This document shows, piece by piece, positions 10,040 through 40,494 of a DNA stretch of 40,494 nt; position 1 is the stretch's first letter, and each line of letters begins with the position of its first letter. Source of the stretch: a virus; IMG/VR virus record IMGVR_UViG_3300045988_104813; one strand, written 5' to 3'. The position numbers and the translations under genes are program-made. Under the pieces are notes generated by a model. It had not been told where the DNA came from. It saw only the letters and a list, made by a program, of their open reading frames with translations, and searched no databases.

Positions 10040-10702
10040 ATGGATAAAACAGCGAAGAAGTTAAAGCAGAAACGCAGAGCCGTAAGGCAGGCGATAAAGA
10101 ACGCCGAAGAAGAAAGAATATTAAAAAATTTTGATGAAATTGCAAAGAAACGCGGTATTAAGAAATTCAATAGAAAGAAAGCATTGCAGTCGTACAAGAT
10201 TGTTGAAAACGAAGTTACAACAGAGGGTGTTGTCAATCTTGTGGTAGTAGGTGCGTGGTATCTGCGTATAAAATGCAAATGGGGTCAAAAACGCGTGTGT
10301 CAATACATAGAGGGAGTTATTCGATATATTGGGGTTGTGTATAACCGTGAACGCGATATTGATAAACTCGCAGAGGAATTAAAAGATGAGTGTGATTTTG
10401 ATTATGAAAAACTGATGAACGATTTTGACCCACTAAAAATCAAGACAAGCACTGCCGAGCAAGACCATATTAAAATGGTTACGTGTGCAATGAAAAACAA
10501 TGCACCTATAATCCTGTATACGTTCTATTCAATGTTGAAATGGAAGAAGAAACGTATAACAGAATTAGGACAGGCAATAAAAGATGTTTTAATGGGTATG
10601 CAGGACGGCAAGCTGAAAGAGGTTAAAGATGTCGTAAGAAAAGAATGCGGTATGACATTCTATTACGACGGACGTATTGAATATTTAGACAGGAGGAATT
10701 GA
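10040..10702 (+). CDS. Hypothetical protein (220 aa)
   Basis: Track ORF. Confidence 0.55.
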   Translation: MDKTAKKLKQKRRAVRQAIKNAEEERILKNFDEIAKKRGIKKFNRKKALQSYKIVENEVTTEGVVNLVVVGAWYLRIKCKWGQKRVCQYIEGVIRYIGVVYNRERDIDKLAEELKDECDFDYEKLMNDFDPLKIKTSTAEQDHIKMVTCAMKNNAPIILYTFYSMLKWKKKRITELGQAIKDVLMGMQDGKLKEVKDVVRKECGMTFYYDGRIEYLDRRN

Positions 10703-10703
10703 T

Positions 10704-11105
10704 TTGACGAAAGAAGAGCTAAAACAGTATCGCAGTATTGTTGCAGAATTAAACGAGGTAAATGACAGAATAAACAGTAATACAGTACACGGTACTGTCA
10801 CAGGCTCTGACGCTGAATTTCCGTACGTCAAGCACTGTATTTCTGTGTCGGGTGTTGAGCCAACACATATATCTGATATTGTACTACGTCAACGATTGGA
10901 GCGGCAAAAAAACAAGATTGAATTGTTTGTTGCCGGTATATTAGACAGTGAAACACGTCGCATATTCCGATACAGGTACATAGACGGCACCGTAATGCCG
11001 TCATGGCAGTGGATTGCATTTAAGATAGGGCATTACGATGAGAGTTATCCACGAAGAAAACATAATAAATTTTTAAAAATGCCGAATTTGCCGAAAAAAG
11101 TGTGA
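10704..11105 (+). CDS. Putative late-gene transcriptional activator (sigma-70 region-4-like, DUF1492/ArpU/RinA-class)
   Basis: C-terminal RRIFRYRYIDG…SWQWIAFKIGHYDES resembles ECF region 4; last gene before a terminator and the packaging region. Confidence 0.45.
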   Translation: MTKEELKQYRSIVAELNEVNDRINSNTVHGTVTGSDAEFPYVKHCISVSGVEPTHISDIVLRQRLERQKNKIELFVAGILDSETRRIFRYRYIDGTVMPSWQWIAFKIGHYDESYPRRKHNKFLKMPNLPKKV

Positions 11106-11286
11106 TACAATTTATAATGCGAAAAGAATGAGCAAACAAAAAATAATGCAAAACATATATACAGTGCAATATTTTGTGTTCTATATCTTACCGCTCGTTA
11201 TTTTCGTAAAAAAGGTAGTGTATCGTCGTGAGATGATGGGTGAATATCTCGTGTGATTGGTGGGAGTGGAGATATTAAGTCAATTA

Positions 11287-11333
11287 AACAGATTGTATAT
11301 GTCAATCATATGCAGTCTGTTTTTTATTTTTGA
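11287..11333 (+). terminator. Rho-independent terminator (16-bp imperfect stem AAACAGATTGTATATG/CATATGCAGTCTGTTT plus TTTTTTATTTTT)
   Basis: Read directly; ends the early/middle operon. Confidence 0.55.
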
Positions 11334-11350
11334 ATGAAAGGGACATAACT

Positions 11351-12916
11351 ATGGAATTATTGCAATTAGTTGAAAAATTTAAAGATATTATCAATGTAAG
11401 CAAGATTGAAGATGCTGTAGATGAATTAAAAACAAAATTGTTAAATGATAATGAGTGTAAGAAGTTATGCGAAGATTGGATTTCAATATGTCCCGATTTA
11501 ACAAAAGATTATATGCAGATGATATTTCAATATTATTTTGCCGACCGTAAAGAGAAAATGCAAGACTACACACCAAAAAGTCTTGCAACGGCAGTCGCTG
11601 AATTATCAAAAAATGAAGATGAAAAGATATGTTTAGATTTATGTGCCGGTAGCGGAGCATTGACGATTCAGAAATGGAATAAGAATAATAATTTAAAATT
11701 TATCTGTAAGGAATACGATAGGCGAGTTATTCCGTTTTTATTATTTAATTTGGCAATTAGAAATATTGATGCCGAGGTCGTGCATTGTGATGTATTGGCA
11801 GATGAAACGTTTAAAGTGTACAGGACAAAAAAAGGCGATAGATTTGCAACAGTTGCAGAAATCGGTAAAAGTGAATTTAAGGCTGACGTCTGTATATCGA
11901 ATCCGCCGTACAATATGAAATGGGAACAACCTGTATTTGCACAATTACAGAATAGATTCTCACAGTGTGAAATTCCGCCGGAAAGCAATGCAAATTATGC
12001 GTTTGTGTTGACGGCATTAAATGAAATCAAGAGCAAGGCAAGTTTTATACTGCCGAATGGCATTTTAAGCACTGATAATAAAAAAGAGAAACAAATAAAA
12101 AAATATTTAGTCGAAATGAATTTTATCGAAAGTATAATTTTATGCCCCGATAAAATGTTTGAAGTAACGTCAATACCAACGTGTATTATTACATTCAACA
12201 AAAACAAACAACATTCGACAGTGGAAATGATTGACCTACGACAGAAATATGAAATTGAACAGCGAATGCAAAACGGGCAGTACGGAGGGGCAAGCCATAC
12301 AAACAGAACATACGCCAAAGAAGTTAAGATTATAACAGAAAGTCAAGTTCAAGACGTATTACTGCAAATTGAACAGCGTGGAAATGTAGCCGGTTATTGT
12401 AAATCTGTAAGCATTGAAGAAATAAAAAACAATGATTATGTATTGATACCGAGTCGATATATAGATTTTGATACGGTGGAAGAAGTGCATAGACCGTATG
12501 TCGATATAGTGAATGATTTGAACCGTGTTATAGCTGAAAAAAACACTTGCAAATTGACAATAAACGAAACTATCGCTAAATCAATAGGTTTTGATGTGGA
12601 AACGCTAAAGCAAGACAATAGTACATCAGATGGATTATCAGAATTAACAGAGAAACTATGTGGCAAAAAGATTGTGAAAAGTGACTATTTCAGAACGACA
12701 AAAAAGAAAAATGAAATAGTATTTTCAAACAACAGCAAAGAAAATATTTCGAGCATTTTTATGCTGATATTCAATATGTGGAAACAACACATATACTACC
12801 TAAACATCGAGGAAAACAGATATTTAGTCGAACTAAGAGATGCACTATTACCGGAACTGATGAGCGGTAAGATTGATTTAAGTGATATACAAACAGAAAG
12901 CGAGGGTGTGCAATGA
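11351..12916 (+). CDS. N6-adenine DNA methyltransferase (HsdM-like, NPPY motif) fused to an HsdS-like target-recognition domain; no endonuclease partner in the window
   Basis: Motif I DLCAGSGAL, motif IV ISNPPYNMKW; C-terminal YVLIPSRYI and LRDALLPELMSGKIDLS resemble HsdS conserved regions; start moved to ATG 11351 (AAAGGGA RBS). Confidence 0.75.
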   Translation: MELLQLVEKFKDIINVSKIEDAVDELKTKLLNDNECKKLCEDWISICPDLTKDYMQMIFQYYFADRKEKMQDYTPKSLATAVAELSKNEDEKICLDLCAGSGALTIQKWNKNNNLKFICKEYDRRVIPFLLFNLAIRNIDAEVVHCDVLADETFKVYRTKKGDRFATVAEIGKSEFKADVCISNPPYNMKWEQPVFAQLQNRFSQCEIPPESNANYAFVLTALNEIKSKASFILPNGILSTDNKKEKQIKKYLVEMNFIESIILCPDKMFEVTSIPTCIITFNKNKQHSTVEMIDLRQKYEIEQRMQNGQYGGASHTNRTYAKEVKIITESQVQDVLLQIEQRGNVAGYCKSVSIEEIKNNDYVLIPSRYIDFDTVEEVHRPYVDIVNDLNRVIAEKNTCKLTINETIAKSIGFDVETLKQDNSTSDGLSELTEKLCGKKIVKSDYFRTTKKKNEIVFSNNSKENISSIFMLIFNMWKQHIYYLNIEENRYLVELRDALLPELMSGKIDLSDIQTESEGVQ

Positions 12917-36690: not shown

Positions 36691-36720
36691 ATAGGTGGCT
36701 ACGTGCCACCTATTTTTTAT
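36691..36720. terminator. Bidirectional terminator ATAGGTGGC-acgt-GCCACCTAT flanked by A-tract and T-tract between endolysin (+) and integrase (-)
   Basis: Read directly. Confidence 0.75.
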
Positions 36721-37748
36721 TTGTTTTCGTTTATGCGGTTTATTGCGTCAATACCTGCATAGTACAAATTAGTTGCATATGTATGACGGAATATATGTGG
36801 TGTAACGTCTTTTGCGATTAATCGTATAGCCGTGTCCGAACGTGAAAACTCGTCACCGCCTGCGGCAACATTCATCTTATCTAATATATTATACCAAAAA
36901 CGACGAAACGATGATTTTGTCATAGGTTCACCGCTTTTCATTGTAAATAAATATATATTTTTTGCGTGTGCAATATATTCTTGCAATTCTGACAATAGTT
37001 TTGCCGGAAGAGGAATGGAGCGGTTGCCTGCGTTTGTTTTAGGCGAATTTTTTAGGTGACTTTCACCGTCCTTTATCACCAAATTTTTGTTTATGATTAA
37101 TCTGCGATTTTTAAAATCAATATCTTTGACGGTCAAAGCCAGTGCTTCACCGCGTCTTACACCAGTGTAATATAGTAGATCTACAAATACACGTTCACGC
37201 TGTGTCAGTTTTGCTTTTTCAAAAATTGCTTTCTCTTCGTTCGATAATGACCGCTTTTCTTTCTTTTGTGATTGCGGTAATGAAACTTTCAACGAAACGT
37301 CCTTGTAGATGTATTCGTTTATTATCGCTTGTTGGATAATCTGTTTTATCGTCAGTCTAACGATTTCAGCAGTTCGGTAATGACCGACACTGATAATGTC
37401 ATTTAACATTTCTTGAATATGATGTGACTTCAACGCACTTAAACGAATACCGCCTATTTCGGGTATAATGTGCGAATTTAGGGCGTTTAAATACATTGCA
37501 TAGGTGTTATACTCTTTCGCTGATTTGTACAGCTTTAGCCACTTTATTCCCCATTGCTCTACGGTCATACCCTCATCATTGATAATGATGCCTTTATTTT
37601 GCAGGCTCTTGAACTCGGCGACCTTTTTGTCCAGTTCCATAATTGTACGACCGTACAGTGTTTTACGTTTCGGTTTGCCGTCGTCTGTATATCCAACAAT
37701 CGTACTTGTTGCATAACGTCCGTCGGGACGTTTTTTATATTTAGCCAT
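36717..37748 (-). CDS. int: Tyrosine recombinase / phage integrase
   Basis: C-terminal HIFRHTYATNLYYAG (R…H..R…Y catalytic pattern); start moved to MAKYKK (AGGAG RBS). Confidence 0.9.
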   Translation of the reverse strand: MAKYKKRPDGRYATSTIVGYTDDGKPKRKTLYGRTIMELDKKVAEFKSLQNKGIIINDEGMTVEQWGIKWLKLYKSAKEYNTYAMYLNALNSHIIPEIGGIRLSALKSHHIQEMLNDIISVGHYRTAEIVRLTIKQIIQQAIINEYIYKDVSLKVSLPQSQKKEKRSLSNEEKAIFEKAKLTQRERVFVDLLYYTGVRRGEALALTVKDIDFKNRRLIINKNLVIKDGESHLKNSPKTNAGNRSIPLPAKLLSELQEYIAHAKNIYLFTMKSGEPMTKSSFRRFWYNILDKMNVAAGGDEFSRSDTAIRLIAKDVTPHIFRHTYATNLYYAGIDAINRINENK

Positions 37749-37847
37749 AAATAACACTCCTTTTTCGTTTTTTTGTATTGAAAATAGAGTGCATTTGTGT
37801 TACAATATCATTGGTATGGGATATTGTGTATAAATGCACTTTATTCT

Positions 37848-37973: not shown

Positions 37974-38696
37974 TTAGAATGTTTCTTCGCAAATACCCAA
38001 AACTTTACCGCAACATTCGTTTCTGATATATTCATTAATGATTATATCGGAATATTTTTCATTATGTGAAATTAATCTGTCAACACCTAATTCCTTAACA
38101 TATGCGTTACCGTCCACAACAAATATCCCGATTTCACCGATTTCAATACTTGGCTGTTCTTTGACGAATAACTTATCGCCGTTGTGATATGTCGGCTCCA
38201 TACTGTCACCCGATACACGAACAATGAAATCTGTTCCCTTTGGCGGTTGTTCTGTTAGGTCAACCTTTTCAGGATATTCTTCGTCCAACGGGTTGCCTGT
38301 TCCTGCCGATACGGGCATATCGTAATAAGGTACTTGGTATTTTTTTATTGGTATGATGTTATCGTAATTTGGTTCGTTTGGAATATTACGTTCTAACTCT
38401 TTTCTTATAACCACTTGAACAACTTCTTTACTGTGGTCATCAAGTTTTCTGTAATCGGATACTAATTTTTTTTCTACCGCTGAATAATTTTTTAAGTTAG
38501 AATTGTCATCAAAATCTTCGAGAGTACATTCTAAGGCTCTTGCGATAGCTTTTATAGTATCTATTTGAGGGTCTTTAGTCACTCCCGATAATATTTTTTT
38601 TAAGGTACTTATCGGAACACCAGATTTTTGCGATAACGTTTCTATTTTCATTTTTTTTGATTTGCGAATTTCTGATATTTTTGTTCCTATACTCAT
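37974..38696 (-). CDS. CI-like repressor: N-terminal XRE HTH plus C-terminal S24 LexA-like autopeptidase
   Basis: HTH KIETLSQKSGVPISTLKKIL; SGDSMEP…K peptidase motif; divergent from the cro-like gene; start moved to ATG 38696. Confidence 0.85.
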   Translation of the reverse strand: MSIGTKISEIRKSKKMKIETLSQKSGVPISTLKKILSGVTKDPQIDTIKAIARALECTLEDFDDNSNLKNYSAVEKKLVSDYRKLDDHSKEVVQVVIRKELERNIPNEPNYDNIIPIKKYQVPYYDMPVSAGTGNPLDEEYPEKVDLTEQPPKGTDFIVRVSGDSMEPTYHNGDKLFVKEQPSIEIGEIGIFVVDGNAYVKELGVDRLISHNEKYSDIIINEYIRNECCGKVLGICEETF

Positions 38697-38722
38697 AACA
38701 TTCAAACCTCCTTTTCAAAATC

Positions 38723-38751
38723 ATTGTAACACATAAATAACTCATAGTCAA
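38723..38751 (-). promoter_or_regulatory. Putative repressor promoter on minus strand (TTGACT, 17 nt, TACAAT)
   Basis: Read on the reverse complement. Confidence 0.4.
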
Positions 38752-38758
38752 GAAAAAA

Positions 38759-38849
38759 AGTTCCAAAAGGTATACTTTTTTTCTTGCAAAAGGGTTGACA
38801 AGTTCCGAATAGTATGCTAAGATATATATAGAAGTTCCAAATAAGGTAC
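38759..38849. promoter_or_regulatory. Three 17-bp operator repeats AGTTCC-N5/7-GTA(T)AC (O1 38759-38775, O2 38801-38817, O3 38833-38849)
   Basis: Read directly; O2 is exactly the spacer between -35 and -10 of the cro promoter. Confidence 0.5.
38795..38823 (+). promoter_or_regulatory. Cro promoter TTGACA, 17 nt, TAAGAT
   Basis: Read directly. Confidence 0.55.
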
Positions 38850-38866
38850 GAAAGTGAGGTGGTAAT

Positions 38867-39088
38867 ATGAAAGTTAAATATAGTGTTATGGCGTCAGAGA
38901 TAATGAAGCGTGGAATTAGAAAAACTGCTATAGCAAAAGCCATAAGTTCTTCAACAAAAACGTTGAACAATAAACTTTGTGGGAAAAGCGAGTTTACTTG
39001 GAACGAAGTATGTACTATTCAAGCAGGCTTTCTACCTGACATATCAAAAGACGATTTAATGGCAACAGATGAACAAAAATCAGCGTAA
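38867..39088 (+). CDS. Cro-like HTH regulator
   Basis: HTH GIRKTAIAKAISSSTKTLNNKL; divergent from the repressor. Confidence 0.6.
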   Translation: MKVKYSVMASEIMKRGIRKTAIAKAISSSTKTLNNKLCGKSEFTWNEVCTIQAGFLPDISKDDLMATDEQKSA

Positions 39089-39108
39089 ATGAAAGGGGGT
39101 ACATAATA

Positions 39109-39306
39109 ATGAACGAAGAAAAAGTTACTATAAACATAGGTACAGACACAACGGAGCTTAATCAAAAACTTGATGAAAGCATAAAAAAAGCAACGGAGTT
39201 AATGGAATTGCTACAACAATTAGGAATAACTCCGTTACTAAAAATTAATACACCATATAATAATGCAAATAGGGTAAGAGGAGCGAAAATTACTCGCCGC
39301 AATTAG
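39109..39306 (+). CDS. Hypothetical small protein (65 aa)
   Basis: Track ORF; preceded by the 19-bp repeat AATCAGCGTAAATGAAAGG. Confidence 0.45.
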   Translation: MNEEKVTINIGTDTTELNQKLDESIKKATELMELLQQLGITPLLKINTPYNNANRVRGAKITRRN

Positions 39307-39469
39307 AAAGTTTTTCACTAATATCTTGTAACCATTTTGTATTACCGTTTATGCGAGAAATGGCGCATTCAGCTAATTCATCATCGTACCAAGCACATCG
39401 TGAAGAACAGGGTGCTTTATCGGTAGCAGTTGACATTAGTGGACAGATTTCGTAATTTGTAAAACTCAT
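39290..39469 (-). CDS. Small Cys-rich protein (59 aa, 4-5 Cys), minus strand, convergent with the 39109 gene
   Basis: Start moved to MSFTNYEIC (GAGGTGA RBS 5 nt upstream); RBS lies inside a hairpin. Confidence 0.45.
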   Translation of the reverse strand: MSFTNYEICPLMSTATDKAPCSSRCAWYDDELAECAISRINGNTKWLQDISEKLSNCGE

Positions 39470-39500
39470 TATAATCACCTCGCTTTCTACGGTGATTATA
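39470..39500. promoter_or_regulatory. Hairpin TATAATCACC-tcgctttctac-GGTGATTATA; on the minus-strand RNA one arm carries the SD of ORF 39290-39469, and each arm carries TATAAT
   Basis: 10-bp perfect arms read directly. Confidence 0.5.
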
Positions 39501-39550
39501 ACACAAATAACGGGGAAATACAATCAGCGTAAATGAAAGGAAGTGAGGGA

Positions 39551-39781
39551 ATGAACATAATAGAAGCAACACGCAAGGCATTAAAAGAGGGCGTAGGAAT
39601 AAAGAATAAGAATGATATTACGCAGAATTATTTATTACCTACAAATACAAGAGAATGTTATATTGTTGTTCCGATTGGGTTTGCTGTAGGTAATAACACC
39701 AAAGCCGTACCACGTTGGAATCCTAAAGCAGAAGATATACTTTCAAATGATTGGGAGTTATATCCGCATAAAACGGTATAA
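39551..39781 (+). CDS. Hypothetical small protein (76 aa from second ATG; track start 39533)
   Basis: Preceded by the second copy of the 19-bp repeat; RBS AAGGAAGTGAGGGA. Confidence 0.45.
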   Translation: MNIIEATRKALKEGVGIKNKNDITQNYLLPTNTRECYIVVPIGFAVGNNTKAVPRWNPKAEDILSNDWELYPHKTV

Positions 39782-39794
39782 CCCCCACAAAGTA

Positions 39795-39998
39795 TTACTG
39801 TTTTAAACAGAACTCGTATGCTACATCATCTGCGTCTTGGACTGAATAAATAAAACCGTCTTGAATTAGATTTCGGAGCATAACATCTAACTCATCTTTA
39901 GGAATTTTAAGGTCGTCCATTACATCATAAAAACATATAGAAATGTATTTGTCGTGAGTTTTGTAAAAATCAAGAATATAATTCTTCAATGCTTCCAT
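39795..39998 (-). CDS. Small acidic protein (67 aa), minus strand, possible winged-helix
   Basis: Track ORF; GGAGGTGA RBS inside a hairpin. Confidence 0.5.
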   Translation of the reverse strand: MEALKNYILDFYKTHDKYISICFYDVMDDLKIPKDELDVMLRNLIQDGFIYSVQDADDVAYEFCLKQ

Positions 39999-39999
39999 A

Positions 40000-40029
40000 T
40001 ATAATCACCTCCATTCTACGGTGATTATA
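40000..40029. promoter_or_regulatory. Second copy of the RBS-sequestering hairpin TATAATCACC-tccattctac-GGTGATTATA upstream (minus strand) of ORF 39795-39998
   Basis: 30 of about 33 nt identical to the copy at 39470-39500. Confidence 0.5.
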
Positions 40030-40079
40030 GCATAATATCAAGAATTTTACAATGAGAGATAGAAAGTAGGTGAAAAACA

Positions 40080-40283
40080 ATGGCAAAAGTAATGGTAGAA
40101 GTAAAGCAAGTAGATTTGAAAACATTTCGCCAAATGTTCGGAATACCGGAGCATACTGTACAACGTTGGGTACACACCAAGAATTTCCCGGCATACAAGT
40201 TGGGTCAGAAATGGTACGTTGACCTGAAAGCATTTGAAAAATGGCGTGAAACAGAACACGCCAACAGCTACAAATATGCGTAA
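40080..40283 (+). CDS. Excisionase-like / MerR-type HTH DNA-binding protein
   Basis: FRQMFGIPEHTVQRWVHTKNFPAYKLGQKWYVDLKAFEKW resembles the HTH_17/Xis family pattern. Confidence 0.5.
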   Translation: MAKVMVEVKQVDLKTFRQMFGIPEHTVQRWVHTKNFPAYKLGQKWYVDLKAFEKWRETEHANSYKYA

Positions 40284-40439
40284 AGCATAATAAAACACCT
40301 TGCAGGCAGACAAGGGCTGTCCGCAGTATTATACCGCAAAAAAGTCAATTTTTCTTTTCCCTAAAAAGTTTGAATTTTAATGAAATCTGTTTTGCGGACG
40401 GCTCCTGTGTGCCTGTGAGGAAGTAAAGAGAGGTAAACA

Positions 40440-40494
40440 AATGAACACAATAGGAATTGCACTGATTAGTTTCGGTATCGGACTAATCATAAGT
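40440..40494. repeat. Exact 55-bp terminal direct repeat, copy 2
   Basis: Identical to 1-55. Confidence 0.9.

Follow-up and report, generated by a model that had tools for sequence, protein, structure and literature searches.

Morons are reportedly promoter-gene(-terminator) units lodged in the operons of phages such as HK97 and other lambda-like phages, as Juhala et al. 2000 and Hendrix et al. 2000 are said to have described them. Here we analyse a comparable arrangement in IMG/VR virus record IMGVR_UViG_3300045988_104813 (the window, the whole stretch of 40,494 nucleotides or 40.5 kb): an array of small genes between a cro-like and an excisionase-like gene, in which two leftward genes are each directly preceded by a perfect palindrome, TATAATCACC-N10/11-GGTGATTATA, and converge on a plus-strand gene. 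As in morons, a single accessory gene carries its own sigma-70/sigma-A-type promoter, here predicted, amid another transcription unit, and is present or absent among close relatives; the leftward genes are oriented like the lysogeny genes and are plausibly expressed in the prophage. Unlike morons, the cassette genes are not followed by a terminator, overlap the convergent gene, and lie inverted in an early operon where they alternate with rightward genes, their promoter and ribosome-binding site (RBS) being fused in the palindrome.

Start-associated sequences (SAS and extended SAS), which Pope et al. 2011 reportedly described in Cluster K mycobacteriophages, are likewise short RBS-containing motifs repeated just 5' of many unrelated phage genes, sometimes near inverted repeats, but they differ in sequence and host and are not known to contain a -10 box or to be linked to inverted single genes. 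Integron cassettes with their attC hairpins also resemble the array, in that small swappable single-gene cassettes are bounded by an imperfect palindrome. In contrast to integrons, there is no integron integrase, attI or attC architecture here, each cassette has its own promoter, and the junctions resemble ordinary homologous or illegitimate recombination at regulatory repeats.

For the insertion sequences (IS) IS10 and IS50, a 'fold-back inhibition' of outside transcription was reportedly described by Davis, Simons and Kleckner 1985 and by Schulz and Reznikoff 1991. As in these elements, the 3' arm of the inverted repeat covers the RBS and the start codon (here the arm reads GGTGATTATA, with the ATG 0-1 nt beyond it), transcription from the resident promoter is predicted to start between the arms, and, by analogy, only read-through RNA would fold and be untranslatable. 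The topology would also resemble that of IS10 RNA-OUT, an opposite-strand stem-loop whose loop is complementary to the mRNA 5' end and initiation region. Unlike IS10/IS50, the locus has no transposase or IS, its 5' arm is the -10 box itself, and dozens of unrelated cargo genes share its module of only ~30 nt. The protection of IS10/IS50 from outside transcription is mentioned elsewhere (10.1101/2025.01.24.634351), as is the antisense control exerted through RNA-IN/RNA-OUT of IS10 (PMC5006887).

In the promoter-early stem-loop (PeSL) cassettes of T4-type phages, repeated promoter/stem-loop motifs lie between small ORFan genes, mark the indel and replacement junctions of hyperplastic regions and serve as homologous-recombination sites for shuffling (PMC2839356, PMC4122927). 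The locus shares with them a consensus sigma-70-like promoter within a short repeated motif and the position of these motifs at replacement junctions. However, the stem-loop of a PeSL works as a terminator, placed ahead of the promoter, and the genes all run in one direction, whereas here the stem holds the -10 box and the Shine-Dalgarno sequence (SD), lacks a U-tract and drives an inverted gene. In addition, PeSL cassettes belong to T4-type myoviruses and form mini-circles, whereas the present array belongs to a temperate siphovirus of Firmicutes that encodes an integrase as well as a cI/cro switch.

The 10-mers themselves brought up nothing but unrelated primer matches in the literature. We found no published description of the -10/SD palindrome, of its breadth across phages of Clostridia, Veillonella and Streptococcus, or of its close link to lone genes inverted in early operons, nor of an alternating plus/minus array beside an immunity switch. 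An earlier sequence-only reading of this DNA, made by a model, had stated that it knew of no system described with this exact layout. The statement is largely fair for the exact palindrome; its logic has precedents in morons, PeSL cassettes and IS10/IS50 masking, and morons, recombination at repeated regulatory motifs and the hiding of an RBS in read-through RNA are all known already.

Anatomy, spread and context of the palindromic module

The two-unit layout proposed in the sequence-only reading, with its repeats, palindromes, four open reading frames (ORFs) and 17-nt overlap, was found again at the same coordinates (aa, amino acids):

39071-39096, plus strand: direct repeat copy 1, made of the cro end, the TAA stop and the RBS of +ORF1; a recombination junction
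39109-39306, plus strand: +ORF1, 65 aa, starting ATGAAC
39290-39469, minus strand: -ORF1, 59 aa, with a 17-nt convergent overlap with +ORF1
39470-39500, minus strand: palindrome 1, loop of 11; TATAAT-CACC-GTAGAAAGCGA-GGTGATTATA, then ATG
39495-39523, minus strand: P1, predicted sigma-A promoter of -ORF1; TTGTAT, 17 nt, TGT-TATAAT
39515-39540, plus strand: direct repeat copy 2, a non-coding cro 3'-end remnant and the RBS of the Tad2-like candidate gene
39551-39781, plus strand: +ORF2 (Tad2-like candidate), 76 aa, starting ATGAAC
39795-39998, minus strand: -ORF2, 67 aa, acidic
40000-40029, minus strand: palindrome 2, loop of 10; TATAAT-CACC-GTAGAATGGA-GGTGATTATA, then T-ATG
40024-40052, minus strand: P2, predicted sigma-A promoter of -ORF2; TTGTAA, 17 nt, TGC-TATAAT; consensus scan 10/12 plus TG

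The 10-mers occur in exact copy only four times in the window, and these four form the two perfect palindromes. Aligned with their flanks, the two copies agree in 30/34 columns, with one gap and one mismatch within the element, close to the 30 of 33 nt claimed previously. Both hairpins are computationally stable, with folding energies of -11.4 to -14 kcal/mol on either strand and z = -2.7 to -7 versus shuffles.

Each palindrome combines a predicted sigma-A promoter and an RBS. The 5' arm is an extended -10 element (TGnTATAAT) followed by the four bases CACC, and the loop and 3' arm make up a long near-perfect SD (GAAAGGAGGTGAT) with an ATTATA spacer, the start codon following 0-1 nt beyond. 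Up to 14 nt of loop and 3' arm are complementary to the 3' tail of Firmicutes 16S rRNA. In P1, the -35 box lies at 39523-39518 and the -10 box at 39500-39495; the consensus scan missed this promoter, whose -35 box matches at only 3/6 positions. Its GATTGTAT...TGnTATAAT block is kept in L003, L045, L079, L342 and others (L numbers denote retrieved loci, viral contigs or genomes, compared with the window).

Transcription from sigma-A promoters starts ~7 nt past the -10 box. The start is predicted to fall inside the loop, near 39488 for P1, so that the mRNA made from the cassette promoter would not include the 5' arm, and its leader, of ~18-19 nt, would be unstructured. The earlier proposal that a transcript begun at the TATAAT of the hairpin lacks the upstream arm fits the sequence in this respect, with TGn and a -35 box at 17 nt. 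Its observation of a TATAAT in each arm also stands, but the promoter context (TGn, -35) belongs only to the arm distal to the start codon. A plus-strand promoter at the TATAAT of the other arm was discarded: there is no TGn, because the preceding bases complement the start codon, and the -35 position falls in variable coding sequence. The palindrome was also rejected as an intrinsic terminator, as no U-tract follows the stem on either strand. A search of Rfam (E <= 1) returned no family matching the palindrome, and no terminator-like site was found between the convergent ORFs.

With loops of 9-12 nt, exact copies of the palindrome were recovered from at least 119 IMG/VR contigs and from 78 loci in 185,579 species genomes, mostly Veillonella spp. 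and metagenome-assembled genomes (MAGs) of Clostridia, including Acutalibacteraceae, Ruminococcus and Ornithomonoglobus. A census of 168 unique contexts among the matches listed revealed constant arms around a loop that varies in sequence and, between 9 and 12 nt, in length. In 140/168 contexts an ORF of at least 25 aa opens at -1 to +5 relative to the arm (139 at -1 to +2), and TGn precedes TATAAT in 120/168, compared with ~6% expected by chance. The proteins encoded behind the palindrome have a median length of 83 aa and fall into at least 65 unrelated clusters. Annotated cargo comprises DUF2188, DUF2513, YjcQ and a trypsin-like peptidase, and the majority is without annotation.

A variant with CATC in the 5' arm is very common and is the form carried by prophages of S. 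pyogenes and S. agalactiae, such as Javan39. In these streptococcal copies an intrinsic terminator stands immediately upstream of the promoter (L496 3213-3238; ~30 streptococcal loci), an arrangement that is a true terminator-promoter composite and resembles PeSL. Two terminator forms were observed, GAGTCCGATTCCCGTCGGAC followed by a T-run and GTCACTGATTTCTCAGTGGC followed by a T-run.

The genes driven by the palindrome are typically lone and inverted. A divergent upstream and a convergent downstream neighbour flank 81/112 evaluable unique contexts (72%); the start of the divergent neighbour lies upstream, at a median distance of 43 nt from the palindrome, the convergent one overlaps by a median of 4 nt, and a co-directional upstream gene occurs in 1 context only. 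The annotated genome of Javan39 provides an example with gene 0053, inverted within the early operon. For comparison, we assembled a sample blind to the stem, comprising 91 unique TATAAT-N11-16-GGAGGTGAT-N3-5-ATG modules; its non-palindromic compact promoter-SD modules show the same inverted context in 14/49 (Fisher p = 3e-7).

A 60%-identical homologue of -ORF1 was observed at L335 200-260 under a non-palindromic compact promoter (TTGTAA, 17 nt, TAAAAT), with its divergent and convergent neighbours and the 17-nt 3' overlap retained. The inverted-gene arrangement is thus not strictly dependent on the palindrome.

Exchange of cassettes and their genes

The window has ~39% GC and a gene order that resembles a circularly permuted temperate siphovirus genome, in which the plus-strand replication, structural and lysis genes come first and the lysogeny/early block occupies the right end. 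No blastn match to the cassette region was found among INPHARED phages. The nearest deposited phages are distant, with ~68% identity to Dorea phage DO134P1 in the terminase region, and the close relatives are human-gut viral contigs and Clostridia MAGs. The genes around the array are as follows:

36717-37757, minus strand: integrase
37974-38705, minus strand: cI-like repressor, S24/helix-turn-helix (HTH)
38867-39088, plus strand: cro-like HTH gene; phrog_4583 transcriptional repressor, E = 1e-5
40080-40283, plus strand: excisionase-like (xis-like) gene, HTH_17; PF12728 at E = 2e-10 and excisionase PHROGs

The cro-like gene forms the left border of the array, and its final codons and stop make up direct repeat copy 1; it is 100% identical in L041, L063, L073 and L107, whose downstream units differ. 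The xis-like gene forms the right border and keeps its place right of the array in relatives. Between these borders, AATCAGCGTAAATGAAAGG occurs in two exact 19-bp copies (39078-39096 and 39522-39540), for which ~0.03 matches are expected by chance and which were reproduced in 0/100 shuffles. The repeat can be extended to 26 nt at 88% identity (39071-39096 versus 39515-39540), and copy 2 adjoins on its left the -35 box of the unit 1 minus promoter. The sequence-only reading had assigned a TAA stop and an RBS to each copy; this is correct for copy 1, but in copy 2 the TAA ends no ORF.

Comparison of window 38700-40494 with the retrieved loci by blastn revealed gain, loss and replacement of whole units. 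Both L107 and L041 match the window in the cro-like gene (98.5% in this comparison) and in everything from 39535 on, and unit 1 is absent; a 29-aa mini-ORF stands in its stead in both. In L019 and L007 the cro-like gene is another one and the first unit is unrelated; the repeat and unit 2 then follow. Conversely, L080 carries window 39070-39545 at 100% identity, exactly from repeat to repeat, in another context. Other units lie between the same cro-like and xis-like borders in L063, L073 and L034. In total, unit 1 is missing or replaced in L107, L041, L019 and L063 and present in a different context in L080 and L075. In L498, cI and cro are followed by a pair made of a 58-aa plus and a 106-aa minus gene, then by the Tad2-like gene paired with the 67-aa minus gene, and finally by xis. 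Relatives have one to three units between the cro-like and xis-like genes, and three consecutive units of plus ORF, minus ORF and palindrome are found in L144, a Hadza Clostridia MAG whose proteins are ~50% identical.

Homology breaks in several relatives at 39070-39100, 39522-39545 and 39999, with a further breakpoint inside +ORF1, near 39160, relative to L075; those relative to L107, L041 and L080 are located at direct repeat copy 1. As homology breaks at the repeats, the region is a cassette-shuffling hot spot. In L019, ~35 nt of the window-type cro 3' end are retained after a palindrome variant, which identifies the 19-mer as a leftover of the cro end and RBS carried by recombination. The earlier view of the repeats as regulatory scaffolding around swappable cargo is thus borne out by the breaks at the repeats, by unit 1, intact in L080 and replaced elsewhere, and by the range of one to three units.

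In L107 (reverse complement of 10100-11700, at ~505-595 in that orientation) a 29-aa hydrophobic mini-ORF, MRNSDPYAGIFYLMGIMFGAVIVILLLKG, takes the place of unit 1. The repeat lies on one side of it and the Tad2-like gene on the other, and neither a minus gene nor a palindrome accompanies it. Three palindrome cassettes in a row were seen in Clostridia MAG prophages at L144 4570-5842, L165 212-1439 and L166 992-2318. Their loops are identical within L165 and within L166, nearly so within L144, and different between genomes, a pattern suggesting that the regulatory block evolved in concert or was recently duplicated.

The four ORFs are real genes, as demonstrated by domain matches, homologues at divergence, invariant cysteines and a predicted fold. 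A word-indexed search with the two minus ORFs retrieved near-identical copies only, whereas an exhaustive phmmer search of 1.84 billion representatives revealed that -ORF1 belongs to a small 4-Cys family of 59-80 aa, with ~11 homologues at 41-64% identity, four invariant cysteines (C9, C21, C25 and C35) and the motifs CPxMS, CAWxD and ECAxSRINGN. No Pfam, PHROG, NCBIfam or PADLOC entry matches -ORF1, and its AF2 model was set aside at a pLDDT of 50. All 22 differences between L075 and the window lie at 39070-39159 and 39512, none within -ORF1, hence no dN/dS. Its partner +ORF1 belongs to a shallow family only (homologues at 75-100% identity), in which the N-terminal part is common to other units and the C-terminal part is swapped along with the minus partner; an N-terminal homologue in L497-L499 is paired with a different, 106-aa minus gene.

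Residues 1-70 of +ORF2 align with positions 1-72 of the 73 in profile PF11195 (DUF2829), at 29.8 bits against a cut-off of 25 (E = 9e-7), and the protein also matches phrog_643 (E = 1.5e-14). Homologues at 39-61% identity occur in L124, L123, L166, L144 and L034, and phmmer gave no direct match between +ORF2 and the solved Tad2 chains. These matches make +ORF2 a candidate Tad2-like, anti-Thoeris sponge. Tad2 proteins are phage sponges that bind the gcADPR signals of Thoeris (10.1101/2023.05.01.538930).

For -ORF2, a single-sequence AF2 model (pLDDT 81) with a1-b1-a2-a3-b2-b3 topology has top Foldseek matches that are all winged-helix proteins (probability 0.9-0.99, but E > 0.03), and weak Pfam matches point to PCI, RPA_C and TrmB; a winged-helix protein is predicted. 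Its homologues in L124 and L144 (51-55% identity) again converge on a Tad2-like gene. The four proteins look soluble, comprising 4-Cys, winged-helix and Tad2-like types. None of the four ORFs has a toxin-antitoxin, PADLOC or NCBIfam match or a match to a solved structure.

Among the other cargo of the palindrome (L001-L197), small winged-helix-type proteins (DUF2513, YjcQ and -ORF2-like) are frequent and DUF2188 is also recurrent. Several cargo proteins, such as c109_L144, c148_L180 and c142_L173, have a C-terminal hydrophobic segment.

A consensus scan identified P_R-like and P_L-like promoters in the cI/cro intergenic region. The same region (window 38749-38841) holds three direct copies of AAGTTCC(A/G)AA, at 38758, 38800 and 38832, and a perfect 13-bp inverted repeat, CAAGAAAAAAAGT/ACTTTTTTTCTTG, at 38749-38761 and 38774-38786. 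These are probably operators and are unrelated to the cassette palindrome. On the minus strand, terminator-like hairpins with T-runs were noted at 40242-40263, inside the xis-like ORF, and at 40298-40315, just past it; both stand upstream of the P2 cassette promoter and could insulate the array from leftward transcription.

Possible roles of the palindrome

We propose a combined explanation, evenly poised in our estimation between right and wrong, in which the locus is an accessory array with self-contained, palindrome-driven leftward genes tied to their own promoter. Its anatomical part is very probable; any specific function for the hairpin would be doubtful at best. The analysis shows the anatomy, the promoter and RBS consensus, the broad spread, the inverted-gene setting, the shuffling and that the ORFs are real; the transcription start and any part played by the hairpin are inferred. 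The cro-xis interval is a hypervariable accessory array of rightward small early genes alternating with lone leftward genes, and each of the latter would be a moron-like mini transcription unit, oriented like cI and int and expressible while P_R is repressed. The ~30-nt module would drive the leftward gene through a promoter in its 5' arm and an SD in its loop and 3' arm. An mRNA that begins in the loop would have an unstructured leader and be freely translated, and the full stem would form only in RNAs other than the cassette's own mRNA.

Two such RNAs can be envisaged. In read-through RNA from the next cassette, running from P2 via -ORF2 and antisense Tad2 into palindrome 1, the stem would mask the SD and start codon; such read-through is possible, as no terminator was found between P2 and palindrome 1. 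In rightward early-operon RNA, the stem-loop would display an anti-SD ~45 nt upstream of the next rightward gene, could pair with the 5' end of the leftward mRNA, and may also protect the downstream rightward gene. In this way the palindrome would make translation of each inverted gene depend on the gene's own promoter and would set it in inverse relation to transcription in the rightward (lytic) direction. The junction blocks (palindrome with promoter; 19-bp cro-end/RBS remnant) would double as homologous-recombination sites for the gain, loss and exchange of units. The boldest reading is unlikely: it would make the palindrome a strand-symmetric RNA switch of -10 box and SD, by which phages embed lysogeny-direction genes backwards in a lytic early operon, read-through RNA hiding the SD and an RNA-OUT-like loop of the operon RNA shutting off the inverted mRNA.

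If the combined explanation is true, the 30-nt signature flags autonomous accessory genes in temperate phages of gut and pathogenic Firmicutes, with at least 65 cargo families beside anti-defence genes such as the Tad2-like gene. It would explain how prophage-expressed and lytic early genes are interleaved without cross-activation, would show that recombination at regulatory repeats, as in the PeSL of T4-type phages, also takes place in temperate siphoviruses, and would offer a minimal self-insulating promoter-RBS part for Firmicutes engineering. Were the palindrome also an RNA switch, the module would point to a large and mostly unexplored reservoir of accessory cassettes in prophages, for defence, anti-defence or regulation, in phages of Clostridia, Veillonella and Streptococcus. 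The streptococcal prophage version is open to experiment and directly testable in lysogens.

Whether the stem itself is selected was assessed in the stem-blind sample and in the census. In 11/91 modules the four bases that follow the -10 box can pair with GGTG at 3/4 or more of the positions (CNCC-type), and the spacer is at least 3/4 complementary to TATA in 10/11 of these versus 19/80 of the remainder (p = 2.7e-5). Covariation was sought in other TATAAT-N4 perfect palindromes, of which none was found; with a bulge allowed, a single compensatory CATC/GATG pair appeared, in the bulged copy of L019. The free n of TGn and the first base after the 3' arm covary weakly (p = 0.05).

Several results weigh against the combined explanation. 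Among the matches listed, the 5' arm varies in unique contexts to CATC (55), CAAC (16), CTCC (15), TACC (8), CGCC (5) and GACC (3), with a transition:transversion ratio of ~2:1, the neutral expectation. At position 8 of this arm A>T (15 contexts) exceeds A>G (5), and in the spacer T9>C, a mismatch in the sense RNA, is found in 12 contexts, the wobble change A8>G in 4 and T7>C in 1; wobble pairing in the sense RNA is not favoured among spacer variants. Six variant scans brought out no clean pairing signature among single-base arm variants. A perfect stem is not required, because mismatched variants (CAAC, CTCC) are common. In the streptococcal version the terminator directly upstream would make sense read-through rare, no obvious upstream leftward promoter was found in single-unit phages, and all counts are drawn from related, recombining phages that are not phylogenetically independent. 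The palindrome is non-random and context-specific, and the data do not prove RNA-level selection or the strand of action.

These variants also favour the main alternative, in which the palindrome has no hairpin function and marks one successful, horizontally spread promoter-leader lineage, kept by promoter/RBS strength and descent and disseminated for being a compact, strong and portable promoter-RBS. It may have arisen by a small inverted duplication of the RBS region, as GGTGATTATA when inverted yields a perfect TATAAT (the ATTATA spacer becoming TATAAT). The frequent stem-breaking changes (CAAC, CTCC and T9>C) and their neutral-looking spectrum are in keeping with this alternative, as are the abundance of stemless TGnTATAAT-N-GGAGGTGAT-ATG modules (80/91 sampled), the TATA-like spacers in 19/80 non-palindromic modules and the -ORF1 homologue driven by a non-palindromic compact promoter. 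However, complementarity at the 8 positions outside the -10 and SD cores has a chance probability of ~1.5e-5, the two halves co-occur beyond chance (the p = 2.7e-5 above), in phages of Clostridia, Veillonella and Streptococcus and over 65 cargo families the arms are far steadier than the loop beside them, and the palindromic class is enriched in the lone-inverted-gene context (72% versus 29%). On balance, we consider simple descent without hairpin function rather unlikely.

The hairpin might instead matter solely in RNA of the rightward early operon, where it would be processed or would stabilise a 5' end to protect the next rightward gene; the stretch preceding that gene would be untranslated, would pair with the minus mRNA and could be cut by RNase III, Y or J1. 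In 97/112 cases the palindrome precedes the next opposite-strand gene, by a median of 43 nt, which agrees with such a role, as does the predicted start of the minus mRNA in the loop, which would make its double-stranded RNA with the operon RNA end exactly there. Spacer changes that would still allow wobble pairs in the antisense RNA (13 contexts) also outnumber the sole sense-wobble variant scanned, A8>G (4). On the other hand, the very common 5'-arm transitions (CATC) give C-A mismatches in the operon-direction RNA, the lack of a U-tract excludes a terminator, and no Rfam family matches, which makes an exclusive role in the operon RNA improbable.

We regard as very unlikely the suggestion of the sequence-only reading that the plus/minus pairs are functionally coupled and antisense-controlled, as toxin/antidote or takeover/counter-defence pairs. 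Overlapping 3' ends do make the transcripts mutually antisense, and some pairs are co-inherited over ~50% aa divergence: the Tad2-like and winged-helix genes stand together in L144 and L124, a 61-aa plus/72-aa minus pair recurs in L063, L034 and L144, and the 4-Cys gene has an overlapping partner in L335. Yet Tad2-like genes are also found with other partners or none (L034, L166), the +ORF1 N-terminus also lies beside the different 106-aa partner, and neighbours without a recombination junction between them are co-inherited anyway; junction position explains the linkage at least as well as function. The toxin/antidote idea found no toxin-antitoxin, PADLOC or NCBIfam signal and its partners re-assort. 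The counter-defence idea keeps one element, the match of a plus ORF to PF11195 as a Tad2-like protein, but PADLOC detected nothing in the four ORFs, which show no defence-family signal.

An operator for a dimeric regulator (winged-helix cargo, Cro or CI) that co-switches the cassette promoters is very unlikely: although a perfect inverted repeat overlaps the -10 box and start site, loops are often identical among copies of one genome (L144, L165, L166) and many cargo proteins are small winged-helix proteins (DUF2513, YjcQ, -ORF2), the distance between the arms ranges from 9 to 12 nt and is 10 nt in one copy and 11 nt in the other in this phage, the same arms serve Clostridia, Veillonella and Streptococcus phages with unrelated repressors, TATAAT and the SD complement fully account for the arm sequence, and the cI/cro operators here have a different motif, AAGTTCCRAA.

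Other palindromic promoter modules

Matches in Proteobacteria were left out of the census, as they represent a different, longer palindrome 5' of Fic-type genes. Its sequence in MAGs of Proteobacteria and Acidobacteriota is TATAATCACC(G/T)..(T)GCGGTGATTATA, immediately followed by the ATG of a Fic/DUF4172-like gene (MWIHE..W..F.W), at L133 2959-2989, L141 1118-1148, L146 3845-3875, L177 811-841 and L182 5987-6017, with ATGCGGTGAAT-like repeats upstream. It looks like an unrelated promoter/operator with the same geometry, the start region being the pairing partner of the -10 box.

A second class of compact module, TTCTGC-TATAAT-N4-(G/T)CAGAA-AGGAGGTGA, has a TTCTGC/GCAGAA inverted repeat that brackets the -10 box and abuts the SD. 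It is present at many loci, such as L200, L217, L228, L265 and L271, and in Javan39 (L496 5748-5782) it drives a second inverted gene beside the cro-like gene.

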